Assembly: GCA_963422665.1 (NCBI GenBank)
Contig: OY730441.1
Location: 2,466,489-2,530,488, forward strand
Reading direction: 5' to 3'
DNA length: 64,000 nt
From: Alphaproteobacteria bacterium
Lineage (GTDB): Bacteria; Pseudomonadota; Alphaproteobacteria; Bin95
Shown here: positions 23,814 to 39,899 of the stretch, piece by piece
Numbering within the stretch: the first letter of the stretch is position 1
How the letters are laid out: each line of letters begins with the position of its first letter
Position numbers and translations under genes: made by a program
The notes under the pieces: model-generated
Told to the model about the DNA's origin: nothing
The model's database searches: none
Seen by the model: the letters and a program-made list of their open reading frames with translations, nothing else

Positions 23814-24404
23814 TCACCCGAGCCCGATATCGGCGAGACCCGCAGCCGTCACCGCGAGAACGAGGCCCGCGCCCACGGCCATGCCGGGCCCGAGCGGCAC
23901 ATGGCCCCGGAGCCACGACCGGCCCCGCCGGCGCTGGACCCAGGCATGGCGGCCGAGCGCACAAGCCGAGCCGACCGAAAGCGCCCAGAGAAGGCCGAAG
24001 GGCCCGAGCAGCCATCCCAGCGCCGCGAACAGCAACACGTCGCCCGGATAGAACGGCCAGCGCCGGCCGAGAGCCTCTGCAACCGTCAGCGGCACGGCCC
24101 CGATCAGCAATCCGGCACCGGCGCCCGCCATCGCCCGCAACAGGCCGTCGGCCGCATCCGGGCCGACCGTCTGCGCCTGCCAGAGCGCGCCCGCGCCCAG
24201 GAGCAGGAACAGCCACCAAGGGTCTATGCGGAAACGCTGCCCGTCGATGCTGCCGATCCGCCATAGCGCGCCGCAGGCCCAGGCGAGCACCACCAGCGAG
24301 AGCGTCGCCGACCGAGGGGCGCCGGCCAATATCGCCATGCCTCCGAACAGGAACACGATGACGGCGAAAACCGGCGCCGCGTCGCGGGACTTGATCGAGG
24401 TCAT
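23814..24404 (-). CDS. Prepilin peptidase (A24 family; TadV/CpaA/PilU-like)
   Basis: polytopic; motif WPFYPGDVLLFAALG matching the GGDVKL-type catalytic-Asp loop; ~195 aa from MTSIKSRD. Confidence 0.65.
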   Translation of the reverse strand: MTSIKSRDAAPVFAVIVFLFGGMAILAGAPRSATLSLVVLAWACGALWRIGSIDGQRFRIDPWWLFLLLGAGALWQAQTVGPDAADGLLRAMAGAGAGLLIGAVPLTVAEALGRRWPFYPGDVLLFAALGWLLGPFGLLWALSVGSACALGRHAWVQRRRGRSWLRGHVPLGPGMAVGAGLVLAVTAAGLADIGLG

Positions 24405-24802
24405 CGCAGATCGTCCTCCCACACGCCGAACGTCGCCGGCAGGAGGCGGCACCAGCGCTCCAGCTCCTCTTCGCCGCAGATCTCCGGGCGCAGCGTCCTC
24501 ACCGCCGAGCCGACTTCGGCCCGCTCCCGGTTCCATGCCTCGAGTTCCTTCTGGACGGCCAGGAGACGGCGCATCCCGGCAACCTCGCGCGCCAGCGCCT
24601 CGCGGACCTTCAGACCCTCGAGACGCGTCGCCGCCCAGCCGCCCGGAGCCGGCGGCGCACCCTGCTTCGTGGCGCTGTCCTGTGCGGGAGCCTCGTTCTC
24701 TGCCGGGACCGCGTCCTGCGTCTGGGCCGCACCAGGCAACGGCATCGCCCCCGCCAGAACGAGCAGGACCGCGAGACCCGAAATCCGCGCCGCCATCAGC
24801 AT
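24401..24802 (-). CDS. Small secreted periplasmic protein
   Basis: signal peptide MAARISGLAVLLVLAGAMPLPGAAQ; 130 aa. Confidence 0.35.
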   Translation of the reverse strand: MLMAARISGLAVLLVLAGAMPLPGAAQTQDAVPAENEAPAQDSATKQGAPPAPGGWAATRLEGLKVREALAREVAGMRRLLAVQKELEAWNRERAEVGSAVRTLRPEICGEEELERWCRLLPATFGVWEDDLR

Positions 24803-25872
24803 CCCGAGCAGCTCCCGACCGTGAGCGACCCGAACGAGCCCGTGCCGGTGACCGTGACAGACCCGTTCACATTGGCGCCCGCGGCCGTGAGGTTGGCGCC
24901 GGCCTCGATGTTCGCGGCCTCGACGTCGCCTGCGATATCGGCGCTCGCCGCCTCCAGTGCGCCCGTCGCTTCCACCGCGTCCGCATTGACAATGCCCGTG
25001 AACGCCGCGTCGCCCCGGAACACCAGGCCGTCCGGCACCGTGAAACTCCCCATGACCTCGACCGAGCCCGCCGTCGTCGCCGTGCCCACGGTGAGCGCCC
25101 GGTCGATCCGGAACTCGCCGGCCCGCATCACCCGGTGCACCTGAAGCTCCTCGGCCGTCAGCACCCGCACGCCCACCAGGTCGTTGCCGTTCATGTCGAG
25201 GTCGGTCTCCATGCGCGCGGAGTCCGGACAGCCGGCCCTGACCCGCCGGAACACGGCGTCACCGCACACGCTCTCCCGGTCGAGCTGCCGGTAGACGGCC
25301 AGCGCCCGCGCGCGCGGATGGCCGCCGGCAGCCGCCCGGAACGCCGTCAGGTCCTCCTGCACGGTCGGCCCCAGCAACACGCCCGACCCGTCCACCACGC
25401 CCAGCGCCTGCCGGCCGCGCGCCTCGAACACCGCATTCGCCGGAAAGCGCGTGTCATTGGCGTCGGCCAGCTGCATCGACAAGAGCCGCACATCGCCCCC
25501 GCCGAGCGAGACCGCCCAGGCCTGGAGCGGGCGCTTCATCGCGTCGCCCGCCTCGTCGAAGCCCTGCGGCAACAGCCTGTCGGTCCTGAGGGCGCCGATA
25601 TCGATCCGCCGCGCCGTCCCGGCCGCCAGGCCTGCATAGGTTCCGTATGCCGAGCGCACATGGCTCTCGACCGCCTGAGCCAGCACCACGAGCTTCCGCG
25701 CCGCGCCAACCGCGTTCGAGGCCGCGATGCGGCCCTGCAGCCAGATCGCGAAGCCGAGCGCGATCACCACCAGCACGATCACCGCCACCAGCGCGCCCAC
25801 CGGCGTCATGCCCCGCCAGCGCCCGATCCATAGGCGCCGCGCGAACCCCGGTCTGCGCATGGGTCCCCTCAT
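24796..25872 (-). CDS. PilV-like minor pilin/adhesin paralogue 1 (prepilin-type leader)
   Basis: basic 21-aa leader ending RG then hydrophobic MTPVGALVAVIVLVVIALGFAIW; shared ARMETD motif and Cys-containing C-terminus LTVGSCSGC; ATGA overlap with paralogue 2. Confidence 0.45.
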   Translation of the reverse strand: MRGPMRRPGFARRLWIGRWRGMTPVGALVAVIVLVVIALGFAIWLQGRIAASNAVGAARKLVVLAQAVESHVRSAYGTYAGLAAGTARRIDIGALRTDRLLPQGFDEAGDAMKRPLQAWAVSLGGGDVRLLSMQLADANDTRFPANAVFEARGRQALGVVDGSGVLLGPTVQEDLTAFRAAAGGHPRARALAVYRQLDRESVCGDAVFRRVRAGCPDSARMETDLDMNGNDLVGVRVLTAEELQVHRVMRAGEFRIDRALTVGTATTAGSVEVMGSFTVPDGLVFRGDAAFTGIVNADAVEATGALEAASADIAGDVEAANIEAGANLTAAGANVNGSVTVTGTGSFGSLTVGSCSGC

Positions 25873-27113
25873 CGCACCACCGGCTCGCAGCCGGTGCAGT
25901 CGCCCGTCGTGACGACGCCCGTGAACGATCCCGTATTCGCGCCGAGACCGCCGTCGATCCGAAGCCTCCGCGCCCGGGCATTGCCCGAGGCCTCGAGCCC
26001 GCCGCCGCCGTCCAGGCGCCCGGCCACCTCCAGACTGCCCGCGCCCACTTCGCCCGCCACCGCGAGCGCCGTGTCCGTGGCGGTGAGCCCGGTGCCGACC
26101 GACAGCAGCTGCGGGATGTTGAACGCCTGCGCCGGCGCGCCCGTATGGCCGAACCGGAACCCGCCATCGGCCCGAAACCTCGTCGCCGGAATGTCGCCCC
26201 CGAACGCCATGCTGCCGGGCTGGCCGGTCCGGCCCACCGTCACATTGCCCGCGATCTCCGCCGGTGCCCCGCCCGTCCCCGCAAAGCGCCCCTCCCGGTT
26301 GGTGCCGACATCGACCCCTTCGACATTGCCGGCGTTCCGAACCTCGTAACAGCGCCGGTCGTTCGCCAGCGCCGCATTGCGGCAGTCCTCGCCGACGACG
26401 ACCGCGACCGGGCTCTCGATCTCGCCCGCCGGCAGCAGCGCCTGGCCGACGGCGCCCGCATTCGGGCCGAACACGAAATCCGTCTCCATGCGCGCAAGCT
26501 CCGGACGCCCGCCCACGGCGCGCCGGTGGAGCCGGTCCCCGTCATGCTCCACCGCATGGTCCGCCGTCGCGAACAGCGAGCCCGCCGGCAAGGCCCCGAG
26601 CACCGCGCGCACCGCCGGCAGCCGGCCGTGCATCGCCGTCGCATCGCCGCCAACCGCGCCCACAAGGTCGAGGCCGCCCATCACTGCGCCCGCGCGCAAT
26701 GCCGGCGCCCGGAACGAAAGCTCCGGGCCCGAAAGCGAGCACGCCGCCATCGGAACCCCGTCAACCATGACAGCGCCATAGGCAGCCGTCGCCACCGTGC
26801 CCCCGGCGCGACCGACCGTGCCGAGGCCGGCCGGGAGGAGGGACCAGCCCCTTAGCTGCGCCGGCGTCACGACACCCGCCGCCGTCACCCGGCCCGACTG
26901 GACCGCCCGGTGGACCGCCGTGCAGGTCATCGCCCAGATGCGCCCACGCTCGCGGTCGATCTCCGCCAGACGCAGCGCCTCCTGCTGGCGCTCCCAGGCC
27001 GCCAGCACGAACACCACCGTCGCGGCCAGGAACAGCGCGCCCACAGGCAGCGCCGCGCCGCGGCCCGCGCCCCGGCGCAGCCGACCGACCAGCGATGATC
27101 GCAGGCGCGCCAC
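25869..27113 (-). CDS. PilV-like minor pilin/adhesin paralogue 2
   Basis: leader ...RLRRGAGRG then ALPVGALFLAATVVFVLAAW; ARMETD motif; C-terminus TTGDCTGCEPVVR. Confidence 0.45.
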   Translation of the reverse strand: MARLRSSLVGRLRRGAGRGAALPVGALFLAATVVFVLAAWERQQEALRLAEIDRERGRIWAMTCTAVHRAVQSGRVTAAGVVTPAQLRGWSLLPAGLGTVGRAGGTVATAAYGAVMVDGVPMAACSLSGPELSFRAPALRAGAVMGGLDLVGAVGGDATAMHGRLPAVRAVLGALPAGSLFATADHAVEHDGDRLHRRAVGGRPELARMETDFVFGPNAGAVGQALLPAGEIESPVAVVVGEDCRNAALANDRRCYEVRNAGNVEGVDVGTNREGRFAGTGGAPAEIAGNVTVGRTGQPGSMAFGGDIPATRFRADGGFRFGHTGAPAQAFNIPQLLSVGTGLTATDTALAVAGEVGAGSLEVAGRLDGGGGLEASGNARARRLRIDGGLGANTGSFTGVVTTGDCTGCEPVVR

Positions 27114-27116: not shown

Positions 27117-27656
27117 TCACCCGAACACGAACGTCAGCGCGTTGCCCGCCGTGCCTTTATTGCAATTGGTGTTGAGCCAACCGATGGTGCGCACCGTGGG
27201 CGCGGTGGTCGGCACGGTCGTTGGCGCCGTCGCGGCCACATTCATGATCACGATGCCCGAGCCCGCCCGCGTCCGGCCCGCATAGGCTTGGCCCAGGTCC
27301 TTGCACGTCTCGTTGTCCAGATCGTCAAACGTGATCGCGAAACGACCGCTGTTCCCACGGATCGTCACCGCACCGCCGAAGGCATGCTGGATCGTCTCCG
27401 AGCCGGCAGAGCCAACCTTCGCGCCGTCCGGGATCTTCCCGAACCCGCGAACGATCGGCACGAGGTCCGCGTTCGCGCTAGGGCCATAGCTGGCCTGGCC
27501 CGAATAGATCCGCTCGACGCTCGCGCGCAGCTGGTTCAGCAGCTTGATCGACTCGCCCTCCTTCAGGCTCGCCGTGATCCCGTTGTAGATCCCGACGACC
27601 GCGACGATCGCCACAAGGCCCGCGATTACCGACAGCAAGACTCCGACCGGGTTCAT
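27117..27656 (-). CDS. Major pilin candidate (type IVB/PilS-like), no obvious leader
   Basis: 179 aa; N-terminus MNPVGVLLSVIAGLVAIVAVVGIYNGITAS shares the xPVGxL start with the two PilV-like proteins; Thr/Pro-rich C-terminal region; directly downstream of the platform gene. Confidence 0.5.
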   Translation of the reverse strand: MNPVGVLLSVIAGLVAIVAVVGIYNGITASLKEGESIKLLNQLRASVERIYSGQASYGPSANADLVPIVRGFGKIPDGAKVGSAGSETIQHAFGGAVTIRGNSGRFAITFDDLDNETCKDLGQAYAGRTRAGSGIVIMNVAATAPTTVPTTAPTVRTIGWLNTNCNKGTAGNALTFVFG

Positions 27657-27668: not shown

Positions 27669-28727
27669 TCAGTAGCTTCGTTCCACCTGGGTCGAGATGT
27701 CGAAACTCACCCACATGATCAGGATCATCTGCGCCGTCCCGACACCCATCAGCACCGTGTTCAGCACGGCGGCCCGCATCCGCATCAACGCCTCCGAGCG
27801 CTCCACCCAGCGATCCACGAACCCGGCAAGCGTCTCTTCCCAGTCCGCGCGCCCGTCCATCGCGCCCGCAACCGCCACCAGCGTCTCGTCCGGGAACCCC
27901 TGGCGCGCCGCCGAGAGCGCCGAGCCGAAGCCCAGCCCCTCGTTCAGCATCAGCTCCCGCACACGGCGCATGCGGCTCCGCACATAGGGCGACGCGCCGC
28001 GCTCGAACTGGACGAACGTGTCCCGGTTCAGGTCCACGCCCATGCGCAGGAACTCCACGCACACGAACAGGAACCCGCTCCCCGACAGCGTCCGGTAAAG
28101 CGAAAAGGGCGGGATCCGGTCCGCAAACACCCGCCCCCGTCCCGTCCAGCGCAGCACAACCAGCCGGAAGGCCGCCAGGAACAGCACGAACGCGATCCCG
28201 ATCTCGACGTCGTTCCCGTAGAAACCCTCCGAGACCCAGGCGAGCGAGCGCGACCAGATATCCCAGCGCGACCGGTCGCTCACCTCCAGCATCGCCGGAA
28301 TGACCTCGTAGCCCATGAACCACGTCATCCCCACGCAGCCAACGAAGATCACCAAAGGCATGAACATCGCGTTCGCCACCGCGCGCACCTGCTTCGAGCG
28401 CATCTCCGCCACCCGCGCCGCCGCCAGGAACAGCACCTCCGCACGCGCCCGGCCCAGCCCGTAGAAGACCATCGCCTCCGACGCCGGAACCCAGCGCGAG
28501 AGTTCCACCGCGAAATCGTCGCCGCCCGACGCCAGCGCCGCCTGCCAGTCCCGCAGCATCCGCACCCGGATCGTCTCGCGCGACTTCGCCTGCATCACCA
28601 CGCCGAGCGCGTCCCGCAGCCCGAGGCCGCCCTGGAGCAGGTCGTGCAGCAGATACCAGATGTCGATCCGCGCCTCGGTCCGGGCCGCCAGGAGCCGGCG
28701 CAGGAACAACCACCGGAAACCCCTCAT
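27669..28727 (-). CDS. Pilus platform protein, GspF/PilC/PilR(R64) family
   Basis: 352 aa from MRGFRWLFLRR (ATGA overlap with ATPase gene); two T2SS-F-like repeats, each with a cytoplasmic helical domain and TM helices. Confidence 0.6.
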   Translation of the reverse strand: MRGFRWLFLRRLLAARTEARIDIWYLLHDLLQGGLGLRDALGVVMQAKSRETIRVRMLRDWQAALASGGDDFAVELSRWVPASEAMVFYGLGRARAEVLFLAAARVAEMRSKQVRAVANAMFMPLVIFVGCVGMTWFMGYEVIPAMLEVSDRSRWDIWSRSLAWVSEGFYGNDVEIGIAFVLFLAAFRLVVLRWTGRGRVFADRIPPFSLYRTLSGSGFLFVCVEFLRMGVDLNRDTFVQFERGASPYVRSRMRRVRELMLNEGLGFGSALSAARQGFPDETLVAVAGAMDGRADWEETLAGFVDRWVERSEALMRMRAAVLNTVLMGVGTAQMILIMWVSFDISTQVERSY

Positions 28728-30409
28728 TCCACCGCCTCCGCGCCCGCGACCAGCATCGGCTTGCCCGGAAGGGCGGCGCCCGGAACCCGCAGGTCCCCGC
28801 CCCGGCGTTCCTTGGCAGCCCCGAACACCGCCTTCGCCCCGGCGATCTCCGCGCCCTTCAGCATCGCGTCCGCCGGATCGACCCGGCCCTCGCCGACCGC
28901 GCGCCAGATCTTCCGCCCGATCGGAACCCCGCCCATCGCGCCTACCCAGTGGTTCCACGCGCCGACCGCATCCCGCCCCTGCACATGCCTCAGATAGCCG
29001 TCGTCCGGGACGATCCACTCCGCAACCGCAAGCGGGCGCACATAGCCCGCCCACGCCGCCAGCGAGAGCGCCGACTGGCCCGCCTTGCGGCAACTGGCGC
29101 AGCCCTCCGGATTGCGGTAGCGGACCCCCGGGCCCAGAAGCGACACCAACTCCTCCGGGAGGTCCCGGCCCTCCGGCAGCGCCGGCTGCGCGCATTCCGG
29201 ACAGAGCAGCGGCACAAGCGTCTGCTTCATCAGCAGGCGCACATTGCCGGGCTTCGTCACCTCCGACACCTCGACGCCGAGGTCCATCAGACGGAACAGG
29301 ATGCCGTTCGCCGTGTGCACGTGGATCGTCGTCCACACCTGGTGGCCGCTATCGATGAACTGCAGCACCTGCTGCGCGCCCATCTTGTCCCGGATCTCGC
29401 CCACCATCCCCGAGGCCGGATGCACCCGCACGAAATGCATCAGCGCCGCCGCAAACCCCAGACCCCGCTCCTCGCCAACGCCCCGGGTCGGAACCGCAAT
29501 CTGCACCGCCCCCGGTATGTCGTATTCGACCGGGTCCTCCAGCGTGATCATGTTGAGCCGACGCCCGTGCTCGCGCATCTGCAGGTTCAGATTCACCGCA
29601 AGCGTCGTCGACTTGCCGTCACCCGTCGTGCCGCCGATGAAGATGCCGCCGTATTTCGACATTCGGATCTCCCGGAACAGGCCCGCCACCTCCGCCGTGA
29701 ACCCAAGGTCCTCCAGAGACTTCCGGCCCCCGACCTGATCGCGGTAGAAGAGGCGCATGTAGAGGTGGTGGCCCTCCGGCTCGTGCGGACCCGCCTCGCA
29801 GCGCAACGCCGCGATCTCCTCCGGCAAGGGAAAGGTCTCCGAACGCCTCACGCTGAAACCCTGGAAGCTCGCACGCTGCAGCGAGGTCTGCCGCGAGCCC
29901 TCGTCCTTCACGAAGAACAGGAACCCGAACACCTGCTCGGCCTCCCGCACCGTCATCGCCGAACCCAGGGGCAGCTTCCGGTCGTTCACGATCGCGAACA
30001 CCCGGCAGTCGTCCGGACCCTTCTCCAGCACCACGTCCGAAGCCCGGGCCCTCGCCGCCTCCGTGAAGATCGCGACAAGCCCCTCCACGATCCGGGGGTT
30101 CACATCCAGGCTCTCGTCACGGACCCGGTTGCCGCGCCAGACCTCCGCAACCTCCTGGAGCGAGGCCGTCTCCTCCCGGAACTGGCCCCGAACCGCGCCC
30201 GTGCGCTGGAGCTCCACCAGCAGCGCGCGCAGCTCGACATCGTTCGCATAGCCGTCCGCGATCAGCACACGCCCGTCCGACCAGACCGCGCAGCGCTCCC
30301 GAAAGCGATCGTCCATCCGCTCCCAGCGCACCAGGCCCGACGGCATCACCTCCGGCGGCTTCTCCCTGAACAGCAGACGGCCCCACCATGTGTCCCGCCG
30401 GCTCGTCAT
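28724..30409 (-). CDS. Pilus assembly ATPase, GspE/PilB/PilQ(R64) family
   Basis: Walker A GGTTGDGKSTTLAVN; Walker B LEDPVEYD..; His-box region; tetracysteine-like CPECA...CASC; 561 aa. Confidence 0.8.
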   Translation of the reverse strand: MTSRRDTWWGRLLFREKPPEVMPSGLVRWERMDDRFRERCAVWSDGRVLIADGYANDVELRALLVELQRTGAVRGQFREETASLQEVAEVWRGNRVRDESLDVNPRIVEGLVAIFTEAARARASDVVLEKGPDDCRVFAIVNDRKLPLGSAMTVREAEQVFGFLFFVKDEGSRQTSLQRASFQGFSVRRSETFPLPEEIAALRCEAGPHEPEGHHLYMRLFYRDQVGGRKSLEDLGFTAEVAGLFREIRMSKYGGIFIGGTTGDGKSTTLAVNLNLQMREHGRRLNMITLEDPVEYDIPGAVQIAVPTRGVGEERGLGFAAALMHFVRVHPASGMVGEIRDKMGAQQVLQFIDSGHQVWTTIHVHTANGILFRLMDLGVEVSEVTKPGNVRLLMKQTLVPLLCPECAQPALPEGRDLPEELVSLLGPGVRYRNPEGCASCRKAGQSALSLAAWAGYVRPLAVAEWIVPDDGYLRHVQGRDAVGAWNHWVGAMGGVPIGRKIWRAVGEGRVDPADAMLKGAEIAGAKAVFGAAKERRGGDLRVPGAALPGKPMLVAGAEAVE

Positions 30410-31365
30410 CGCCCGGACCTCGACCGGTAGGGCAGGCGCCCGCTCGTCCAGCCCTTCACGCGCACGCCCGGAGGACGAGCCTCGACCGAAACCACCCTCA
30501 CGCCGCCCGGCAACCGGTCGCCCGCCTCCACCCGCCAGACGCTCTCGCCGTCCGTCACCGCCGCGCGCAGCGCCTCGCCCGATCCCATCACCGCGAACCA
30601 GCCATAAGCGCGGGGCGGCTCGGGCGGAGGCGCCTTCTTCTCCTTCCGCGCCGTCCTGGCCGCCTCGGCAGCCGCTTTCGCCTGCGCCTCCCGCGCGATC
30701 TCCGCACGGGCCGCCTCCAGAATCGCCGCATGCGCCCCGCGAACCCGCGCATCCGCCTCGCGGCGCACCGTCTCAAGCTTCAGAGCCTCCGCCGCCCTCG
30801 CGGCCGCAGACTTGTTCAGCGCCGCCGCAAGCTCGATCTCGGAGCCCACAAGCTCCTTCAGGATCGCCTGGCGGTCCCGGCACAGAACCAGCACCTCGCG
30901 CTCAAGCTCCAGAGCCTCGCTGAACTGCCCCTCGTTCACCGCGCTCGACAGCATCCGCACGATCGCCTCGCGCGGGCACTCGAAGGTCCGCAATATCGCG
31001 GGCTCATAAGCGATAACCGGAGGACCGGGAGGAGAAGCCGGGGCGGCAGCGGGAGGATCGGACTGCCGCCCCGGCAGACCGGCAGCGGACGGTGCGGCCT
31101 CATTATCCGCCGCCGCCGGTGCAGGCTGAGGATCGGCACCCGCGCCGGATAGCGCCGACGGAGGCTTGTATTCCGGAGGCAGGATATCGAACGACGATCC
31201 GCCGGGACCCTGCGCCGGGGCGATCGTCGCGGGCGCCGCCTCCCCGGGGCTCTGCGCCGAGGCCTCGCCGAACGACAGCACCGCCACCGACAGCGCGAGC
31301 GCCGACAGCAGGAGACCGCGACGGATGCCGGGCCCGACGGCCGCGTTTGCCCGACACGCCGAAAC
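30406..31365 (-). CDS. PilP-like pilus assembly protein (signal peptide, Pro/Ala-rich linker, coiled coil, C-terminal beta domain)
   Basis: C-terminal YGWFAVMGSGEALRAAVTDGESVWRVEAGDRLPGGVRVVSVEARPPGVRVKG resembles the secretin-binding PilP domain; N-terminal 185 aa of ORF 30406..31965 rejected (Ser/Ala-rich antisense of plus-strand genes); start probably GTG ~31365. Confidence 0.45.
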   Translation of the reverse strand, partial: VSACRANAAVGPGIRRGLLLSALALSVAVLSFGEASAQSPGEAAPATIAPAQGPGGSSFDILPPEYKPPSALSGAGADPQPAPAAADNEAAPSAAGLPGRQSDPPAAAPASPPGPPVIAYEPAILRTFECPREAIVRMLSSAVNEGQFSEALELEREVLVLCRDRQAILKELVGSEIELAAALNKSAAARAAEALKLETVRREADARVRGAHAAILEAARAEIAREAQAKAAAEAARTARKEKKAPPPEPPRAYGWFAVMGSGEALRAAVTDGESVWRVEAGDRLPGGVRVVSVEARPPGVRVKGWTSGRLPYRSRSGR

Positions 31366-31411
31366 CGGGGCCGACTTGACGTGGCCCCAAGCCTCGATAC
31401 AGGATGCGGTC

Positions 31412-31654: not shown

Positions 31655-31669
31655 TCCTCGTCTGAAACC

Positions 31670-31900
31670 ATGCCCGGCGGTCTTGATACCGCCGCCGTAG
31701 TCCGGGACCTGGAAGCTGCGGACATGGACCGCCGACAGGCCGAAGCCGTCGCCGCCGCGTGCCACAGGGCAGCAACTGCCGCACAGCCCATAACTCTCGA
31801 CCGGCTCGACGCCGCCCTCGCAAAACTGGAAGCGCGCATGATCCACTGGATGCTCGTTATCGCCGGAGCGGTCGTGGCCGCGGTCAAGCTGATCCCCTGA
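31670..31900 (+). CDS. Small tail-anchored protein, paralogue B
   Basis: 76 aa; same LDAALA.LEAR..W.L.I.A.V.AAVKLIP C-terminal pattern as 31412..31654. Confidence 0.5.
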   Translation: MPGGLDTAAVVRDLEAADMDRRQAEAVAAACHRAATAAQPITLDRLDAALAKLEARMIHWMLVIAGAVVAAVKLIP

Positions 31901-31978: not shown

Positions 31979-33301
31979 TCAGTCGATCTTGTCCGGCGTG
32001 TGCTGCGTCCACACCGCCGGTCTCATCCCGAGCTGATGCGCGAGCGTACGCCAGTGGACGCGTCTAGAACCCGCCGGGTCGTTCCTGACGGTCATCTCCA
32101 GAGTGCCCCGCGTCCAGCGCCAGACGCCGGCGAAATGCGGGCCCTCGACCAGGTTTCCGGCCTCGTCCACCACCGAGAACTTGCCCTTCGGATGGAACAC
32201 GAAACGCTTGTCCGCATAAGCCTCGCCCATGAAGGCCAACTCGCGCGGATACGGGCGCGCCAGAAACTCGTCCGTCAGCTGGAACGCCGCATGGCGATGG
32301 CCGGTGGGCCTGAACGGAAACGGGTAACCGACCATGTAAACCACTTCCCGACCGCCGATTCGGGCCGTGATCTTGTCTCCGCCCTGCGAACGTACCGGAA
32401 GAACGAACTCCTCTTCGGCGCCGTCCTCTCCGGCCGCCCAGAACTCTCCGATACCTTCCGTCCTGGCATAAACGAAACCGTTCCCTGCAGGCGATTTCAG
32501 GATGTTGCCCTCCTGGGCGGCTAGGTAGGCCTCAACCTCTTCCGCTGTGGTTGTCGGCGCCCCTCGCGACGCGCCAAGACCGGTCGTGCCGGGCGCCCTC
32601 AGATGCGAGCCCGGGAAATTCCGGATCGGTGCATCCGGGTCCTGACGGCGCAACTCCTCCATCTGGAGCGAGGTCTGCTTTTCGTTGATGGCCATGCCGA
32701 CAGGCAGGTCTAACCCGGGACAGGCGTCCGCCAAGGCGCGAGGCCAGGTATCTTGGACATGCCCTCTTTCTGAGCGAATCCAATAATCCTTGCCGCCTTT
32801 TCGGTGTCGGACGACTTCGCCCGCTAGGAAGCCTGTCGAGGGATCGTAGAAAAGCGGAAGATGCCGTGGCCTCCGGCCGTCGTTATACGAATTTCTGACA
32901 ACGGCTCCGATCAGCTTGGCCTGCTGGAGCACTTCCCACTTTACGTCCCTCTGGGCCAACCAAAGCGGGTCGCCATTTCTCTTCTTGTAGGCAAGGCAGC
33001 CGATACGTGATCCGTCTTTTGAGAAAATAAATCCTCGCACGATATTGCGGTAATTCGGATGATGGACGCCTTCGAATATCCACGCGCGACCGGACAACAG
33101 ACTGTCATAGAAGGCCTTGTCGTAGGGAATGAAATTCGGATGGGTGTCAATTGCGATATCCCTGACTGTCCCATGCGCCATGCAGGACGACAGCACGGCT
33201 CCCGCCAGAAGCAGCGCCAGCGCTCTTCCTGTCCCTTGTTTCAGCGTCGTCATTCTGTGATCTCCATTCGGTGTCTCTCGATCACAATGATTATCCGGCA
33301 T
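31979..33301 (-). CDS. Lipoprotein of unknown function, markedly lower GC than surroundings
   Basis: lipobox ALALLLAGAVLSSC; ~440 aa rich in K/N/F/Y; AT-rich stretches e.g. ~32990-33060. Confidence 0.5.
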   Translation of the reverse strand: MPDNHCDRETPNGDHRMTTLKQGTGRALALLLAGAVLSSCMAHGTVRDIAIDTHPNFIPYDKAFYDSLLSGRAWIFEGVHHPNYRNIVRGFIFSKDGSRIGCLAYKKRNGDPLWLAQRDVKWEVLQQAKLIGAVVRNSYNDGRRPRHLPLFYDPSTGFLAGEVVRHRKGGKDYWIRSERGHVQDTWPRALADACPGLDLPVGMAINEKQTSLQMEELRRQDPDAPIRNFPGSHLRAPGTTGLGASRGAPTTTAEEVEAYLAAQEGNILKSPAGNGFVYARTEGIGEFWAAGEDGAEEEFVLPVRSQGGDKITARIGGREVVYMVGYPFPFRPTGHRHAAFQLTDEFLARPYPRELAFMGEAYADKRFVFHPKGKFSVVDEAGNLVEGPHFAGVWRWTRGTLEMTVRNDPAGSRRVHWRTLAHQLGMRPAVWTQHTPDKID

Positions 33302-34229
33302 GCCGACCGGCCATGCCGGGCTTGCGCGCGAAAAAGCGTTGGACCCCGAACGCCCCTGCAAACCAGGCCCGAGTCAGCCGGCCGAACCGTTCCATCCACA
33401 CCAGCCTGTCCGCCGACAGCGTTCCGCTCCGCGCGGCCTCCGTCATCCGGCTCTCCTGGGCAGCCAGGATCCGGGCGTTCGGCAGACAGCGCGCCGACAG
33501 GTCCATGATCCCCAAGGCCTCAAGGCCCGCTGCCCGCAGCTTGTCGACATAGCCGGCCGGGCTCTCCAGATCGACCATCGACCAAGACTCGCAGATCGGT
33601 TGGATATACTCGCGGTATTCCTCCGGCGTGAGCGCCTGAGCCGGCATCCAGTCACTCCCCGCCAGACGCCCCCCGGGCCGGAGAATGCGCGCGCATTCCT
33701 TCAGGAGCCGCGCGCGGTCGGCCATGTGGCAGGCCCCGTCGATACTGACCACAACATCGACCGAACTGTCGGGCAGGCGGATTTCCTCCGAACAGTCCGA
33801 GAAGCGGAACTCGACCAGATGCTCCAACCCGTCGCTCTTCGCCAGTTCGCCGGCGGCTTCCAGCTGTTTCTCGCTGATATTCAGCCCGATGACCCTGCAG
33901 CCGAGCGTTCCGGCCAGGTGAAGCGCCGTTCCGCCGACCCCGCAGGCCGCATCGGCCACCACGTCTCCGGTGCCGATCCGCGCAGGACCGACCACTTCGC
34001 CGATCATCCTGACCACCGCCCTGTCGAGCAGGTCCCTGTCAAGCCGTCCCGCATCCGGGCCGTCCAGAACAAACGGCTCCTCACCGGGATCGAAGAGCCC
34101 GAAATGGAGATGGCGCGGATGCCAGCCGGACAGGTAATAGTCGCCGCCGTCGTAATGAGCGGCGACAGCCCTGGCCTGCCGTGACAGCGGAGCCTGATAG
34201 CTGTCCGGAGCTAACGCCTGTGCCTCCAT
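33291..34229 (-). CDS. Class I SAM-dependent methyltransferase of the cyclopropane-fatty-acid-synthase/mycolate-MT family
   Basis: AHYDGGDYYLSGW (HYDxxNxFY-type) motif; motif I VADAACGVGGTALHLA; 312 aa; 10 nt from the polyprenyl synthase gene. Confidence 0.7.
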   Translation of the reverse strand: MEAQALAPDSYQAPLSRQARAVAAHYDGGDYYLSGWHPRHLHFGLFDPGEEPFVLDGPDAGRLDRDLLDRAVVRMIGEVVGPARIGTGDVVADAACGVGGTALHLAGTLGCRVIGLNISEKQLEAAGELAKSDGLEHLVEFRFSDCSEEIRLPDSSVDVVVSIDGACHMADRARLLKECARILRPGGRLAGSDWMPAQALTPEEYREYIQPICESWSMVDLESPAGYVDKLRAAGLEALGIMDLSARCLPNARILAAQESRMTEAARSGTLSADRLVWMERFGRLTRAWFAGAFGVQRFFARKPGMAGRHAG

Positions 34230-34239: not shown

Positions 34240-35256
34240 CTAGTGACGGCGCTCGACGCAGAACGCCGCGAAGTCGTGCAGCGCCTCGCGCACCGGGCCG
34301 TCCGGAAAGAGAGCGAGAGCCTGCGCAGTGTCTTCCGCCCGGGCGCGGGCCTCGGCCAGCGTGTCCGCCAGCGCATCCCGCCGGTCCAGCAGCGCCAGCG
34401 CCCGCTCGAAGTCGCCGGGCCGCCGGTCGCCATCCTCGAAGGTTCGGCGCCAGAAGGCCCGTTCCTGCGCATCGCCGCGTTCGAATGCCAGAATGACCGG
34501 CAGCGTCGCCTTGCCCTCGGCAAAGTCGCCCCCGACCGCCTTCCCCAGTTCCGCCTGCCGGCCCGACCAGTCCAGGACGTCGTCGGCGAGCTGGAACGCG
34601 ATCCCCAGGTTCCGACCATAGGCCCCGAGAGCCGTTTCCGCTTCGCGCCCGGCGCCGGCGGCGACGGCCCCCAGCCGGCAGGCGGCGGCAAACAGGGCGG
34701 CAGTCTTGTCCTCGATGGCCTCCAGACAGGCCTCCACCCCCGCTCCGGGGCGGCCGGCATCCTGCATCTGGCGCAACTCGCCCTCGGCCATCGCCGACGT
34801 TGCCTCGACGAACAGCTCGAGCACCCCCGTCGGTCCGGCCTCTATCATCAACTGGAACGCGCGCCCGATAAGCCAGTCCCCGACCAGCACGCTTGCGCGG
34901 TTCCCCCAAAGCGCGTTGGCGCTGGCGACCCCGCGCCGCAAGGAACTCGCGTCCACGACATCGTCATGCAGCAGCGTGGCCATGTGGAAGACCTCGACGC
35001 TCGCCGCGAGCGTGACGGGCCGGCCCCCGGCCGCCCCGCAGAGGCGCGCGCATGTCAGGGTCAGGATCGGACGCAGGCGCTTGCCGCCCGCACGCGCGAT
35101 GTGGCCGCCCAGGCGCGGTATGAGCGTCGCCCCGGCTTCCATCCGCTCGGCGATCAGCGCCTCGACCCGATCCAGGTCAGTGCCCGCAAGAGACCGCAGC
35201 CCGGCAAGCGCGGACTGTGGCGCCAAAGGCGGCAGGGGAAACGCGGCGTCAGCCAT
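34240..35256 (-). CDS. ispB: trans-Polyprenyl diphosphate synthase (IspB/IspA family)
   Basis: FARM LLHDDVVD and SARM QLADDVLD aspartate-rich motifs; 338 aa from MADAAFPLPPL; 4 nt after the upstream secreted-protein gene. Confidence 0.8.
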   Translation of the reverse strand: MADAAFPLPPLAPQSALAGLRSLAGTDLDRVEALIAERMEAGATLIPRLGGHIARAGGKRLRPILTLTCARLCGAAGGRPVTLAASVEVFHMATLLHDDVVDASSLRRGVASANALWGNRASVLVGDWLIGRAFQLMIEAGPTGVLELFVEATSAMAEGELRQMQDAGRPGAGVEACLEAIEDKTAALFAAACRLGAVAAGAGREAETALGAYGRNLGIAFQLADDVLDWSGRQAELGKAVGGDFAEGKATLPVILAFERGDAQERAFWRRTFEDGDRRPGDFERALALLDRRDALADTLAEARARAEDTAQALALFPDGPVREALHDFAAFCVERRH

Positions 35257-35260: not shown

Positions 35261-36784
35261 CTACTCCCCGGCCTTTTCAACCAGCCAGCGGTCGTGAAGC
35301 CGATGGACCGCCCCGGCCATGATTTCGAAGGCCAGATCGTTCTCGCCCCTGCGGAACGCCGAGGCCGATGCGTCGATCTTCGCTTCCAGCCAGGCCCAAT
35401 CGGGGTGATCTTTCGGGATTGCCGCCACAATGGCGGGGGCTACCCGATAGTAGCCATCAACCATCGTACGCCGCTCGGGTGTAGCCTGCATGTAGGTGTC
35501 CCGGAACCGGCGCATCGCCGTCAGCGTCGGACCTTGGTTCGCTTCACCGCGCATCTCGACCACGGCGGTTGTCAAGAAGCAGGACCCACCATCACCGCCA
35601 CTATTCCCGACATCCATATCCTCTGGTTTACCCGTGGCATCGACGGTATCCATCGTTTCCTCGGCGGTACTGGTCGTCTCCTCTCCACCGCCACCGCCAT
35701 CACCATCACCATCACCGTCGCCGTCGCCGTCGCCGCTGGGGATGGGCGCGCAGTCCTCCTCCCTGCGCACCAGCAGCTTGGCACCGTTCACCCGGGCGAC
35801 CCGTCGGGTCGTGACGACCGGAGCCCTTGGGCGCACCCGGAAGTCGCGATATTCCGTGTTCTGCTCGTAATGCAGCGTGCAGCTTCCCGTCTCACCGGAA
35901 GGGCAGCTGCAGGAGCCCGTGGTCCGATGGACAGGGGCCGTCCTCCAGGCGATCACCGGGTCCGGGATCGGCGCGGGCGGCAGCGCCTGCGCATACTGGA
36001 AGGGACAGAGCCCCTCGGCATGACGCCATGGGCTGCACTCAGCCCGCGAGCCCAGCCCCGCCCGGAGGCTACAGTCGCGCGGCCAGAGATGCGCCGCACC
36101 CGGTGCCGTCGCCGAAAGATCCCGGCCTTGCGTTTCGCCCGCACCCAGAACGCCCGTCACCTGGATCGGAACCTGGCGCGCCTCGCGGAAGGTATCCGCC
36201 GGCGAGCCCGGACAGGCGACGTCCCGCGTCTCCGTCTCCCAGCGTATGCCCGTCACCGTACGGATCGGATCGGCGACCGCGCCCACCAGGCCCACACGGT
36301 CATCGCCCGTCGAGGGAACGCCTATGCAGGTGGGCAGCGCCGTGTCGTCGCGTCCATGCGCCCCCCGCGCGATGCGCGTGTTCGCCAGGATCACATGCAG
36401 GCCCGTCCGGCCGCCGCCATAGCGCACGGGCGCGACCTGGACCTCCCTGTGGCCCCGGCCCAGGCCCTTCAGCTCGTCCTGTGCCGCATAGACAGCCAGC
36501 ACCCCCTGGCAGTAGCGCGCCGTCAGGCCCCGCTCCGTCCAGGACGAAAGCCACCAGGACCCGGAAGGGGGCGCGGCGAGCCCGATCCATTCATCTTCCC
36601 AGAGATTCGCGGTGTCCGTCACCCGGATGCGAGCCTCCACGCTCTGCCAGGCGCTCTGGATCGCAACCGCATACGCCAGCGCCTCCTGCTGGCGCGTCCG
36701 GTCCGGATCGCCCGTCTGGGCCGCCGCGCCCGACGCGATCCCCACAAATGCCAGCGCCAGAAGCGCCGACCCCGTCCGTTTCAT
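35261..36784 (-). CDS. Secreted Cys-rich protein containing a (Gly-Asp)n tract
   Basis: signal peptide MKRTGSALLALAFVGIASGAAAQ; GDGDGDGDGDGDGGGGGEE encoded by a hexanucleotide repeat; ATGA overlap with upstream gene. Confidence 0.5.
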   Translation of the reverse strand: MKRTGSALLALAFVGIASGAAAQTGDPDRTRQQEALAYAVAIQSAWQSVEARIRVTDTANLWEDEWIGLAAPPSGSWWLSSWTERGLTARYCQGVLAVYAAQDELKGLGRGHREVQVAPVRYGGGRTGLHVILANTRIARGAHGRDDTALPTCIGVPSTGDDRVGLVGAVADPIRTVTGIRWETETRDVACPGSPADTFREARQVPIQVTGVLGAGETQGRDLSATAPGAAHLWPRDCSLRAGLGSRAECSPWRHAEGLCPFQYAQALPPAPIPDPVIAWRTAPVHRTTGSCSCPSGETGSCTLHYEQNTEYRDFRVRPRAPVVTTRRVARVNGAKLLVRREEDCAPIPSGDGDGDGDGDGDGGGGGEETTSTAEETMDTVDATGKPEDMDVGNSGGDGGSCFLTTAVVEMRGEANQGPTLTAMRRFRDTYMQATPERRTMVDGYYRVAPAIVAAIPKDHPDWAWLEAKIDASASAFRRGENDLAFEIMAGAVHRLHDRWLVEKAGE

Positions 36785-38085
36785 CCCGAACTCCCCGTTG
36801 TGCGATCCGCCGCCGCGTCTGCCGCGCCCGCCTGCGTCAGCGCGTCGAACTCGCTCTCCAGCATGGTGAACGGCCGTGTCCGCCTGACCCCGAACCGCCA
36901 GCCACCCTCTTCGCTCCAGGAGACCGAGGCGACCTCGACGCCCTCCATGGCGGACAGCATCGCCACCGCTTCCCTGAGCGGCCTGCCGGTGCCAAGCACC
37001 GCTTCCGCGTCCGCGCCGAACTCCGTGTATTCGATATCGAAGCCGCGAAGCGCCAGCGTCCGGTCCAGAAGGTCACGGAACTGCGTCGGCTCCAGCCAGC
37101 GGCCGGCCTTCGGGTCGTGCCGCTCGAGCACCGAAGGCAGAGGGCTCAACGCGATCGACGCACCCTTGTCGTCGATATCCGCCACCGGCCATCCGGCCAG
37201 CATGTCCTTCGCCATCGGGCCGTAGACGCGCGGATCGAGGCCCTCCCTGAGCGCCCAGCGGACCTCCAGCACGGGCCGACCCATCAGGCCGCCATACGAA
37301 ATCCCCGTCTCGCTCCCGGCAAACCTCGGATGGCAGACCACGGCCCGCCGGTCGAACCCCGCCATGCGCACCCTGAGGCCGTCCCAACCCGCCTGACACG
37401 ACCGCAGGAACGCCGGCGTCACCACGACCGCCTCGACCGTCGGCGGCTCCTCCGGTTCCGGCTTCCCGTACCCGGCCCACTCCCGAAGGTCTTCATAGTG
37501 GAACAAGCCCGCATATGCCGCGCCCCCGGCAACCAGCAACAGCACCGCCGCCCAGGCCCCGACCCGCGACAGGCTCCCCTTCGGGGCCTCGGCCAGGACC
37601 GGCAGGTCCTTCGCAGCCGCCGCGATACTCGATGCTTCCACGGTCGTCGCCTCCTCGAACAGCCCCGCCAGACCCGGCGTGGCGAGGATGCGGACACCTT
37701 GGGTGGCGCCCGTCCCGAGCGCCCTCTGCGCCTCCGCAGCCGCCTGAAACACGCCGTCGCCCCCGGGAAGGATCCCGCCGCCCGAACTGCGCACGACCCC
37801 GACCCGCTTCGGCCCATCGTCCTCGCCGTCCTCCTCGATGAACGCCGTCCAGGGCGACCTGCCCTCCGGGCGCTTGCGCATGAACTCCACCAGCGCGCCC
37901 GCAAGGGGCGGGAGACCGCCCGGATTCTCGATACCGCCCAGGAACCCCGTCTGCCCGCCGAGCTCGACCGTCCAGCGATGGCCCCGGTCGCGCGCCGCCT
38001 TCGCCGCCTTGCCCCCGCGCAGGACTTCCCGCTCCCAGTCGAGACTGGCCGCGAAACGGTGACCGCCGACCACAAGCACGCTCAT
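36781..38085 (-). CDS. Bitopic pilus biogenesis protein, PilO(R64)/BfpC-like
   Basis: ~434 aa from MSVLVVGGHRFAASLDWE; cytoplasmic N-domain, single TM VGAWAAVLLLVAGGAAYAGLF, periplasmic C-domain; between secretin and the rest of the pil genes. Confidence 0.4.
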   Translation of the reverse strand: MSVLVVGGHRFAASLDWEREVLRGGKAAKAARDRGHRWTVELGGQTGFLGGIENPGGLPPLAGALVEFMRKRPEGRSPWTAFIEEDGEDDGPKRVGVVRSSGGGILPGGDGVFQAAAEAQRALGTGATQGVRILATPGLAGLFEEATTVEASSIAAAAKDLPVLAEAPKGSLSRVGAWAAVLLLVAGGAAYAGLFHYEDLREWAGYGKPEPEEPPTVEAVVVTPAFLRSCQAGWDGLRVRMAGFDRRAVVCHPRFAGSETGISYGGLMGRPVLEVRWALREGLDPRVYGPMAKDMLAGWPVADIDDKGASIALSPLPSVLERHDPKAGRWLEPTQFRDLLDRTLALRGFDIEYTEFGADAEAVLGTGRPLREAVAMLSAMEGVEVASVSWSEEGGWRFGVRRTRPFTMLESEFDALTQAGAADAAADRTTGSSG

Positions 38086-39899
38086 CCGCCAGCCTCCCGG
38101 GCCGCGCCGGCTGCCGCCGGAGAGACCGCATCCCGGAGGGCCGGGTGCGCCGGGGCCGCATTGCCGCTCTCGACCTTCGCGACAGGCCCGCCGGCCGGGA
38201 ACCCGGCGCCGAGCCTCCGCTCCGATATGCCGAGCGGCGTCCCGATATCGGCCGTCACCAGCAGCGCCGTCTCGACCCGCGCGATATCCGTGTCCGCGCC
38301 GCCCTCCGGCAGCGGCACCGCCGGATGGAACGTGCCCGACCGCTCGCCCGACGACGACCGGTCGCGGAAGCCCGTGAGGAGAAGCGTCTCGCCCCTCGCG
38401 ATACGCTGCGTCACCACGATCGCGCGCCGACCGCCCGACGGAAGCTGGATCCGGTTGCCCGCAGCCCCGAAGGCCGCGAACTCCGGACGGTCCTGAATGG
38501 TGGCCGTAATACGAGCCAGGACCTCGTCCGGCGCCACGATCCGTGCGACGAAACTCAGCCCGAAGCCGGACGACACCGTTCCCGGCGTCAGCTCCACCGC
38601 CCACACGCCGTCCTCGATCGTGGTGCTGACCTTCTGCAGATACGCCTGGTCGAACAGGTCGTAGAACTGCGCCGGGCGCCCGTTCAGGGTCGGCACATCC
38701 ACCGACAGCACCCGCGAGGCCGTGCCGACCTTGCGGAGCGCATTCACTGTCGCGCGCAGGCTCGAGGCCCCGACCGATGTCGGCTTCACCACGGAAATCG
38801 TGCCGCCGTCGAAGCCGACCACGAAGTTGGACCCGAACGCCTCCGGCAGGATGCCCGTCAGCCCCACTTCGTAGTCCGAGCCCTTGTCGAAGCGCACCGA
38901 GTAGAGATGCACCGAGAGCGTCACCGGGCGCAGCACATGCCGGTTCACATGCTCCAGATAGGCCCGCACCCGCTCGACCGCACGCGGCAGGCCGGTCGCC
39001 GTCACCGTCGCGGACGCCGCCGAAACCGAGACCGTCCCTTCCGGGCCCGCCGCCGCAACCGCCTGCGGGCCGATCTCCTGCCAGGGGTCGTAGGTCATCT
39101 CCGAGGAGATCGACTGCGACGAGGATCCGGCCGTCGCTTCGCCGCCCGCGCCGACCGTCGTCGTGGTCACATTGTATTTCTGGCTGCCGAGCAGGGCATG
39201 GACGGCGAAGATGCGCGTCTCGGAGCGCACGACCTCGACGGTCGCGGTCCCGTCATCGTATTGCCACCGGTAGCCCCCAGCCTGCGTCCAAGCGTCCAGC
39301 AATCGGTCGAGCGGACCCGACCACACGCCGGCCTCGCCCGCCAGCTCGTCGGACCAGGACGAGAGCCAGCCCGAGACGAAGCCGCTTCTGTTGAACGCGG
39401 CTCGAACGCGTGCGTCACCCGACGCTTCCCCCGCCTGCGCCCCGCTCTGGACTTCGATGCCCGCCTCGACGCCGGCCAGGCTCTCGCCCGTGCCCAGCCA
39501 TTCGGCCCCGACCAGCCGGACTTCGATCCCGGCTGCATCCGATATCCGCCGCGCCAGCACCTCGTCGCCCGGCTCGTCGCCCAGCGTGACCACGATCCCG
39601 GTCTCCGAGCGCAGGTCCTCGGGCAGGAGAGAGCGATCCTCCGCCACCGGCCGCAGCGCCAGATAGGGGTCCCTGGATTGCGTGAGAGAGCGGAAGCCGG
39701 GCCTGTCCGGCTCCAGCGAGCCGACCGAACCCAGACGGGCCTCTACGGACGCTGCGTCCCGCGCGACCTCAGCCTGGTCGAACCAGCCGCAGCCGCCAAG
39801 CAGGACAGCACCCAGCGACAGCGAAAGCAGCATGCTTCCGACACGCGCCGATGACGGCCTGTTGACAACATGCGGCGAATCCAACAGCTTCCCTCCCAT
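38082..39899 (-). CDS. Lipoprotein secretin (PilN of R64/BfpB-like)
   Basis: lipobox LSLGAVLLGGC; C-terminal secretin domain ...VPTLNGRPAQFYDLFDQAY...ETALLVTADIGTPLG; first gene of the minus-strand cluster. Confidence 0.65.
   Translation of the reverse strand: MGGKLLDSPHVVNRPSSARVGSMLLSLSLGAVLLGGCGWFDQAEVARDAASVEARLGSVGSLEPDRPGFRSLTQSRDPYLALRPVAEDRSLLPEDLRSETGIVVTLGDEPGDEVLARRISDAAGIEVRLVGAEWLGTGESLAGVEAGIEVQSGAQAGEASGDARVRAAFNRSGFVSGWLSSWSDELAGEAGVWSGPLDRLLDAWTQAGGYRWQYDDGTATVEVVRSETRIFAVHALLGSQKYNVTTTTVGAGGEATAGSSSQSISSEMTYDPWQEIGPQAVAAAGPEGTVSVSAASATVTATGLPRAVERVRAYLEHVNRHVLRPVTLSVHLYSVRFDKGSDYEVGLTGILPEAFGSNFVVGFDGGTISVVKPTSVGASSLRATVNALRKVGTASRVLSVDVPTLNGRPAQFYDLFDQAYLQKVSTTIEDGVWAVELTPGTVSSGFGLSFVARIVAPDEVLARITATIQDRPEFAAFGAAGNRIQLPSGGRRAIVVTQRIARGETLLLTGFRDRSSSGERSGTFHPAVPLPEGGADTDIARVETALLVTADIGTPLGISERRLGAGFPAGGPVAKVESGNAAPAHPALRDAVSPAAAGAAREAGG

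Follow-up and report, generated by a model that had tools for sequence, protein, structure and literature searches.

What kind of pilus is encoded beside the transfer-type secretion genes of an uncultured alphaproteobacterium of ~70% GC (guanine plus cytosine), and what are the genes that interrupt its operon? The locus in question occupies positions 23814-39899 of a 64,000-nucleotide stretch of contig OY730441.1 (assembly GCA_963422665.1), the whole of which is referred to here as the window. Judged by homology, it is well supported as a type IVb pilus of the IncI/R64 kind and, with a probability that we put at about 0.85, it represents the pilus half of an IncI-like conjugative transfer region (mating-pair formation class MPF_I) on an element integrated in an alphaproteobacterial chromosome. 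Its interest lies mainly in the taxonomic setting, the atypical pilins and an embedded gene cassette.

At ~70% GC, mechanical lists of open reading frames (ORFs) for the window are full of shadow ORFs, and gene calls were settled by codon-position GC, family searches and conservation in relatives. Eight related pilus operons in loci of alphaproteobacterial metagenome-assembled genomes (MAGs) were read (L002/L003, L004, L005, L008+L009, L010, L011, L048 and L049). Between 23814 and 39899 all relevant genes lie on the minus strand except two small ORFs on the plus strand; several junctions are 4-nt overlaps (ATGA) and the remaining gaps measure 4-37 nt. Every gene type listed in a preliminary description of this DNA was recovered on the minus strand and in the order given there, so that the list held as far as it went; it omitted a polyprenyl synthase, a methyltransferase, a lipoprotein, the two plus-strand ORFs and a 133-aa ORF. 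In particular, ~4 kb between pilO and pilP had been overlooked, which hold a four-gene insertion and two antisense genes. The gene set is far beyond chance; at least eight related loci have it in colinear form, and they keep the core order as far as their sequence reaches. From the secretin gene downwards, the pilus genes outside the insertion are:

38082..39899, minus strand: PilN-family lipoprotein secretin, lipobox LLGG↓C, alternative start at 39833
36781..38085, minus strand: PilO/PilO2-family bitopic assembly protein, 434 aa, one mid-protein transmembrane segment; start overlaps the secretin stop (ATGA)
30406..31413, minus strand: PilP-like protein, 335 aa, with signal peptide, coiled coil and C-terminal PilP domain
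28724..30409, minus strand: PilQ-like assembly ATPase, 561 aa (PF00437, E 2.7e-42)
27669..28727, minus strand: PilR-like platform protein, 352 aa; start overlaps the ATPase stop; sole platform gene in the cluster
27117..27656, minus strand: PilS-type major pilin, 179 aa, leader MNPVG, no Glu5 (PF08805, E 6.8e-8)
25869..27113, minus strand: PilV-like minor pilin 1, 414 aa, leader ending ALPVG (Shufflon_N, PF04917, 18.3 bits)
24796..25872, minus strand: PilV-like minor pilin 2, 358 aa, leader ending MTPVG (Shufflon_N, PF04917, 21.7 bits)
24401..24802, minus strand: conserved periplasmic protein, 133 aa, with signal peptide, kept in L008-L011, L048 and L049
23814..24404, minus strand: PilU-like A24 prepilin peptidase, 196 aa, without methyltransferase domain

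The IncI/R64-type assignment of the preliminary description was borne out by direct matches of PilN, PilQ, PilR, PilS and both PilV to their IncI counterparts, and by the order pilN-O-P-Q-R-S, which is that of R64. These matches were obtained with family hidden Markov models (HMMs) built from the window and up to seven related loci, and their E-values refer to a small reference set of 33 sequences. The presence of a secretin domain in 38082..39899, on which the earlier description had staked its case, was evident from the PilN-family type IVB model TIGR02520 (the best model; E 1.2e-41, 142.9 bits against an equivalog cut-off of 287.65), with only 16.4 bits for the generic Pfam Secretin model. 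The secretin family matched IncI PilN at 1e-28, and its only solved relative is the BfpB lipoprotein secretin (PDB 9u5s, E 4.9e-21). At E <= 0.001 the secretin has 272 homologues, some with PF07655/PF00263, nearly all from MAGs labelled Alphaproteobacteria and several sharing the same megabase contigs. A tblastn search of 72,556 plasmids returned 2608 records at ~26% identity, mostly IncI-type enterobacterial and annotated PilN, of which ~2300 are from Escherichia, Salmonella or Shigella; megablast found no close DNA relatives among plasmids.

The remaining assembly proteins are consistent with this assignment. Although the window PilO-like protein itself gave no direct Pfam match, an exhaustive search yielded 54 relatives, and 10 of the 27 full-length ones match PF06864 PAP_PilO (best E 7e-9), the sole family found among them; the family profile also matches the type IV pilus biosynthesis protein 4bz0/4byz (3.4e-8), a similarity to the PilO2/BfpC class of bitopic, actin-like assembly proteins. 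For the PilP-like protein, TIGR03021 is below cut-off in the window sequence (E 1.4e-4) and is matched by five of seven family members (best 1e-5), and the gene lies immediately upstream of the ATPase gene, as expected for PilP. A longer 519-aa PilP ORF starting at 31965 was rejected in favour of the ATG at 31413. The ATPase matches IncI PilQ at 4e-37 and GspE at 1e-38, as against just 1.8e-5 for the TadA family, and the platform matches IncI PilR at 3e-20, with only E 1e-3 for TIGR02120 GspF. The peptidase is below cut-off for PF01478 in the window (E 0.013); all five family members match (best 1.3e-4), and D54 and D122 are invariant in the family. When shallow family alignments were compared by hhalign with single IncI PilO, P, U, M, L, T, K and I sequences, only PilO was matched, weakly and colinearly. 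The 133-aa periplasmic protein had no family match.

The major pilin scores 33 bits with PF08805 PilS (cut-off 22) and matches IncI PilS at 8e-6. Its leader is of 5 aa, a stop codon lying four codons upstream of the ATG, and position 5 of the mature protein is Val; the N-terminus is conserved in seven loci. The long leaders ending in Gly that had been described are therefore a property of the two PilV-like proteins (~25 aa) and not of the major pilin. Both PilV-like proteins fall below the PF04917 cut-off of 27.5 bits, and match IncI PilV at 1.4e-6 (PilV1) and 8.6e-12 (PilV2); they are 27% identical to each other over their C-terminal halves. All three pilins share a P-x-G cleavage motif. An rci-type recombinase and shufflon, which had been suggested as worth seeking, were not found within the window: there was no Rci homologue at E<0.05, and no repeated inverted repeats of the 19-bp (sfx-like) type around the pilV genes. 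Instead, two tandem, hard-wired pilV paralogues replace the shufflon.

The pilus had also been described as joined to a type IV secretion system (T4SS), and the pil genes indeed run straight into an IncI-like traH-traY set. This 'fusion' is the canonical IncI layout, since IncI pil genes likewise precede rci and traE-traY. The T4SS (135..20640, same strand, downstream of the pilus) is colinear with IncI traH-traY, as determined by tblastn with IncI-gamma Tra proteins. The coordinates below are maximal ORFs, and true starts may be internal:

19684-20640, minus strand: TcpQ-domain protein
19163-19954, minus strand: DotD/TraH (family HMM against IncI TraH, 1e-5)
18300-19892, minus strand: DotC/TraI (T4SS_TraI; IncI TraI tblastn 1.7e-27, family HMM 1e-29)
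16469-17659, minus strand: DotB/TraJ ATPase (DotB 254 bits; IncI TraJ tblastn 2.5e-43)
15600-16676, minus strand: TcpQ-domain protein
12235-13614, minus strand: DotI/TraM (DotI/IcmL; tblastn match to IncI TraM)
11300-13063, minus strand: DotH/TraN (DotH/IcmK; tblastn match to IncI TraN)
10128-12227, minus strand: DotG/TraO
6188-9175, minus strand: TraU, 995-aa ORF (IncI TraU tblastn 5e-77, 28% over 931 aa)
4288-5610, minus strand: TraW-like (tblastn match to IncI TraW)
2099-4288, minus strand: DotA/TraY (TIGR04346, 234 bits against a cut-off of 100; tblastn match to IncI TraY)
135-3491, minus strand: TraG/VirD4-like coupling protein, 1118-aa ORF

Pfam matches in this segment comprise PF16932 (1.4e-56), PF16816 (1.5e-26), PF12293 (3.3e-36) and PF11393 (8.6e-36). 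The 995-aa ORF was without a match in Pfam, NCBIfam or the PDB, its identity as TraU coming from tblastn. In the coupling-protein ORF the TraG/VirD4 domains are confined to residues ~740-1100; the N-terminal ~700 aa, which match no family, may in part belong to a separate gene upstream or to a shadow ORF. Inside the T4SS segment, 13592-14770 (minus strand) has a DsbG/DsbC-like thiol:disulfide interchange domain (E 7e-9), and its product is possibly the counterpart of IncI TrbB, which is annotated as a protein-disulfide isomerase in the IncI record L047.

We compared the locus with an IncI reference (LT985289.1; L006/L047), an IncI1/IncI-gamma system of the R64 and ColIb-P9 type in which a thin pilus (pilL-pilV) accompanies the Tra/Trb MPF_I apparatus. 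In common are homologues of PilN, O, P, Q, R, S, U and V, and a pil block followed on the same strand by traH(DotD)-traI(DotC)-traJ(DotB)...traM-traN-traO...traU...traW...traY. The window proteins are, however, just ~22-35% identical to those of IncI; the pilin leader has 5 aa and no Glu5; the peptidase gene follows the pilV genes, unlike the S-T-U-V order of R64; there are two tandem pilV paralogues and no detected PilT, PilM, PilI-K, rci or shufflon; and four extra genes and two antisense ORFs stand between pilO and pilP. Moreover, in contrast to IncI plasmids, the element is chromosomally integrated in an alphaproteobacterium and present in several copies per genome. The T4SS resembles Legionella Dot/Icm in having homologues of DotA, DotB, DotC, DotD, DotG, DotH and DotI. 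It departs from Dot/Icm in that its gene order and closest matches are those of IncI Tra, in its linkage to a conjugative-type pilus and in the TraG/VirD4-like coupling protein.

The closest annotated relative in the plasmid collection is the type IVb pilus cluster of the alphaproteobacterial plasmid pBSY19_1 of Bosea sp. RAC05 (NZ_CP016463.1, L007), which matches the secretin (4e-32), the ATPase (1e-53), the platform (a GspF-family protein, 1e-33) and the PilO-like protein (PilO2, 2.6e-4) and includes a TcpQ-family protein. Unlike the window, it has two ATPases, the second of them PilT-like, and a TcpQ gene just upstream of the secretin, and is without the CFI-box, synthase, methyltransferase and lipoprotein genes described below.

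As the window from 43.6 to 64 kb codes for ordinary metabolism, we take the element to be integrated, with the pilus operon at or near one of its edges. No tRNA genes that might mark an integration site were present in the window, and promoter and terminator scans were at chance level and uninformative. The cluster recurs in related alphaproteobacterial MAGs, with several copies per genome. The copies are also mosaic: relative to the window, L049 has a secretin, synthase and methyltransferase at 89%, 92% and 87% identity, and PilO, ATPase, platform and pilin at only 36-57%, a contrast which indicates recombination inside the pilus operon at the level of modules. L049, which has the synthase-methyltransferase pair, and L005, which lacks it, are separate element copies of a single 5.38 Mb genome.

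IncI-type transfer systems, combining a thin pilus with a Dot/Icm-like T4SS, are known almost entirely from enterobacterial plasmids. That this architecture also occurs in uncultured, high-GC Alphaproteobacteria, on integrated elements present in multiple copies, widens its host range and reveals how it varies, with hard-wired PilV pairs for the shufflon, atypical pilin N-termini without Glu5 and module-level recombination.

The R64 and TP114 systems suggest a mechanism by analogy. The A24 peptidase would cut the PilS-like major pilin and both PilV-like minor pilins behind their conserved P-x-G; the PilQ-like ATPase would then polymerise them on the PilR-like platform, PilO and PilP taking part, and the fibre would leave through the PilN lipoprotein secretin. 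It would tether the donor to a recipient, upon which the adjacent Dot/Icm-like T4SS could transfer DNA in liquid, and the choice of recipient would be set by the two hard-wired PilV variants with no shufflon involved. In IncI systems, thin pili give stability to mating pairs both in broth and in the gut, and PilV acts as the adhesin (PMC9045228); pili of this type are characteristically needed for mating in liquid and not on surfaces.

Several observations weigh against a conjugative IncI-type pilus. The HMM matches of PilN, PilP, PilV and the A24 peptidase lie below curated cut-offs. PilT, PilM and PilI-K gave no significant tblastn, HMM or hhalign match in the window, and PilL is represented at best by the two TcpQ-domain proteins of the T4SS segment, that is, in another position; its TcpQ-like C-terminus aligns weakly with ORF 15600-16676 (pairwise E 0.001). 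The absence of Glu5 from all three pilins sets them apart from IncI PilS and PilV and is uncommon among type IV pilins that assemble. No relaxase, oriT or integrase was found inside the window, so that the conjugative function is deduced only from the type of T4SS and the multi-copy distribution. Finally, the mechanism is inferred by homology with R64 and TP114, in an uncultured organism.

The second part of the question concerns the insertion between pilO and pilP, which comprises:

35261..36784, minus strand: secreted Cys-rich protein, 507 aa, with signal peptide, conserved N-domain, (GD)n acidic linker and C-terminal CFI-box domain
34240..35256, minus strand: long-chain trans-polyprenyl diphosphate synthase, IspB/DdsA-like, 338 aa, with DDVVD and DDVLD motifs
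33291..34229, minus strand: class I S-adenosylmethionine (SAM)-dependent methyltransferase, 312 aa, RebM/MitM-like (Methyltransf_11, E 7e-21)
31979..33253, minus strand: hypervariable lipoprotein, 424 aa, lipobox LSS↓C, predicted lipocalin-like beta-barrels
31670..31900, plus strand: small antisense ORF, 76 aa, C-terminal transmembrane segment ...AAVKLIP, 89% identical in L005, opposite strand to pil
31412..31654, plus strand: paralogous small antisense ORF, 80 aa, kept in L004, L008, L009 and L011 on the opposite strand

The secreted protein matches NF041770 CFI_box_CTERM (E 1.1e-10, 41.2 bits against a cut-off of 40). Its CFI-box domain starts C-F-[IL]-x-T-A, and the pattern CFLTTAV...LR.FRD...YY..AP is invariant in five sequences. 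An AlphaFold2 model of this domain, made without an alignment, was helical with a mean confidence (pLDDT) of 62.8, too poor for a fold search. The N-domain had no homologue in the 72,556 plasmids, and searches of the literature for 'CFI-box', or for a link between pili and polyprenyl compounds, found nothing relevant. The (Gly-Asp)n linker that precedes the CFI-box (35400-35560, minus strand) is very variable in length, with ~6 repeats in the window and ~30 in L017 (8300-8620), and in L004 it is replaced by a Pro-Pro-Lys-Asp repeat.

The synthase matches PF00348 (E 3e-65) and the octaprenyl synthase model NF008140 (255 bits, below the equivalog cut-off), and aligns with the octaprenyl and decaprenyl synthases 4jxn and 3mzv of the PDB at 1e-84 and 1e-82. 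Both Asp-rich motifs are present in its sequence (...HMATLLHDDVVD... and ...DDVLD), with an IspB-like small residue at position -5 of the first; the enzyme is accordingly of the long-chain IspB/DdsA type, as far as chain length can be predicted from these features. The methyltransferase is closest to 6uv6, MitM and RebM in the PDB (1e-25 to 1e-22), the C6-methylating farnesyl diphosphate methyltransferase (1.5e-8), the geranyl diphosphate C-methyltransferase (1.3e-7) and UbiE all being further removed.

The lipoprotein is predicted, in a confident model, to adopt a lipocalin-like multi-barrel fold. It belongs to a family of more than 140 clusters and diverges far faster than its neighbours, being 36.5% identical in L005 against 75-98% for the neighbouring genes; a 100%-identical entry lies on a 4.59 Mb contig together with two more paralogues. 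Bacterial lipocalin-fold lipoproteins and barrels such as Blc, YedD, Tp17, ToxS/VtrC and the potempins have no sequence similarity to it, and it differs from them in being multi-barrel and much larger and in having its own invariant INEKQTS...GHRH motif set. The two small antisense ORFs are on the opposite strand in L004, L005, L008, L009 and L011 and are absent from L048 and L049; they may split the cluster into two transcription units. A minus-strand candidate, 'orf185' (31418-31975), was rejected, as the conserved coding signal there is that of the two plus-strand ORFs.

In every operon that covers the interval (L002-L005, L009, L011, L048 and L049), the N-domain of the secreted protein and the lipoprotein stand between pilO and pilP. 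The synthase-methyltransferase pair is present in four of eight operons (the window, L004, L048 and L049, not L002, L005, L009 or L011). The same four genes occur in the same order as a free-standing unit in L017, flanked by IS21 and IS66 insertion sequences, and in L021, beside a coupling protein and a primase. Furthermore, the CFI-box is attached to the secreted protein in all six loci with the enzyme pair, against one of four pilus operons without it, a count that rests on a small and phylogenetically non-independent sample of ten loci. Adjacency of synthase and methyltransferase is kept in an unrelated context (L018), at 44% methyltransferase identity. We conclude that the four genes form a portable cassette and are not a core component of pilus assembly. 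In L020 (10001-20300), a 55%-identical methyltransferase occurs without the synthase, in natural-product-like surroundings of two ATP-binding cassette (ABC) exporters, one with a C39 peptidase domain, a 2-oxoglutarate-Fe(II) oxygenase and a P450.

What the cassette does can only be suggested. Taken together, a long-chain isoprenoid synthase, a methyltransferase, a secreted protein and a lipoprotein of lipocalin fold hint that a hydrophobic isoprenoid is made and handled at the envelope. Our best guess is of a long-chain isoprenoid lipid, made or handled by the cassette, that would be bound by the lipoprotein; the cassette would then act at the envelope or the mating interface, or else be simply cargo. 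The rapid divergence of the lipoprotein among co-resident element copies would fit a role in specificity or exclusion. A fuller proposal, which we consider a long shot, is that the cassette lipid-modifies or lipid-loads the mating interface, a long-chain, perhaps methylated, polyprenyl lipid made by the two enzymes passing to the lipoprotein in the outer membrane and/or to the conserved Cys of the CFI-box, with the lipoprotein as the determinant of specificity or exclusion for this family of multi-copy elements; if true, a conjugative type IVb pilus would here have an accessory layer that depends on isoprenoids, so far undescribed.

Pairs of polyprenyl synthases and methyltransferases occur in quinone and methyl-isoprenoid pathways, as in hepS-menH-hepT of Bacillus and Lon22/Lon23 of longestin biosynthesis. 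The window pair is similar in that an IspB-like synthase adjoins a class I SAM methyltransferase, but the latter is nearer to RebM/MitM than to UbiE/MenG or the prenyl-diphosphate C-methyltransferases, and the pair stands in a pilus operon of a mobile element. Several observations count against an isoprenoid function of the cassette. No UbiA-type prenyltransferase or terpene cyclase is present with the cassette; both enzymes look cytoplasmic and the other two proteins exported; half of the related pilus operons are without the enzymes; and a general link of the CFI-box to prenyl synthases or methyltransferases was dropped, as it was seen within 6 kb in none of 25 other metagenome loci, so that the association is confined to this lineage.

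The four genes may instead be unrelated cargo (a 'moron') in a permissive spot of the operon, with no part in the pilus or in mating, an explanation to which we give somewhat less than even odds and which is nearly as likely as the isoprenoid and specificity ideas. It would account for the cassette outside pilus operons in L017 and L021, for the operons that lack the two enzymes, and for the lower GC of the lipoprotein (0.61) and methyltransferase (0.67) genes than of those around them. On the other hand, the presence of the secreted protein N-domain and the lipoprotein between pilO and pilP in all eight related operons examined, the gaps of 4-37 nt and the Shine-Dalgarno-like sequences argue for co-expression and retention. 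In either case the cassette is a concrete example of biosynthetic genes travelling inside a pilus operon, and it yields a large unnamed lipoprotein family with a confidently modelled, lipocalin-like predicted fold.

The secreted protein also bears on an alternative for the pilus itself, namely that it is a colonisation or secretion type IVb pilus (Tcp/Bfp/Cof-like), serving attachment to a host or to particles and export of the operon's secreted protein and not the stabilisation of mating pairs. TcpF and CofJ are secreted proteins exported by their pilus systems, and the operon described here likewise codes for one, with no counterpart in R64. The sole solved relative of the secretin, BfpB, comes from the Bfp pilus of enteropathogenic Escherichia coli, a virulence pilus that is not linked to a T4SS and the rest of whose gene set is not mirrored in the window. 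No shufflon was found within the window, and the relatives look, by their names, like MAGs of symbionts. Against this alternative, PilV, PilS and PilN match IncI families best, and wherever the sequence of a relative reaches far enough, a complete IncI-like T4SS adjoins the cluster on the same strand. We therefore regard this alternative as unlikely, noting that the two roles are not mutually exclusive.

Much less probable still is a pil2 cluster of the PAPI-1/ICEclc type, belonging to a genomic-island-type (MPF_G) element. PAPI-1 is an integrative and conjugative element which reportedly has fixed PilV genes and no shufflon, as the present locus does, but the adjacent T4SS has DotA/TraY, DotB, DotC, DotD, DotG, DotH, DotI and TraU, and because these define MPF_I it is of type IVB/MPF_I and not MPF_G. 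Readings as a Tad/Flp (type IVc) pilus, a type IVa pilus or a type II secretion system, for which only the shared GspE/GspF superfamilies of ATPase and platform speak, were dropped with practically no weight left to them on the family matches, given that the best secretin model is PilN of type IVB and not CpaC, PilQ or GspD, that the platform is single and not split into TadB plus TadC, that the pilin is PilS-type and not Flp, that PilO2 and PilV families are present without PilMNOP or pseudopilin sets, and that no Tad/Cpa/Flp family was best for any component, the CpaC, TadB, TadC and Flp families matching no ORF at all.

A few neighbouring genes complete the picture around the IncI-like transfer region. 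Directly upstream of the secretin, 39937-42780 (plus strand) holds amidohydrolase, dimethylsulphoniopropionate (DMSP)-lyase-like and flavin-monooxygenase genes, which are shared with the flank of L005 at 90-95% protein and 91% DNA identity and are absent from the flanks of L002 and L004; they mark either a shared insertion site or cargo at the end of the element. In the chromosomal flank, 59059-60297 (minus strand) is an ORF with a DDE_Tnp_1-associated domain (E 4e-20). At the other end of the pilus operon lies one further gene:

23126..23809, minus strand: polytopic membrane protein, 227 aa, no family match, cluster-associated in some relatives (L011, L049)

Between the pilus and T4SS genes, two paralogous lipoproteins are encoded at 20627-~21610 and 21613-~22590 (both minus strand). 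Both show a weak C-terminal similarity to the TbpB/surface-lipoprotein barrel (PF01298, E 1e-3), and they share the motif ...FDAGVAGNRI.GG..GP...E.AGV.E..GI.G.FGA.

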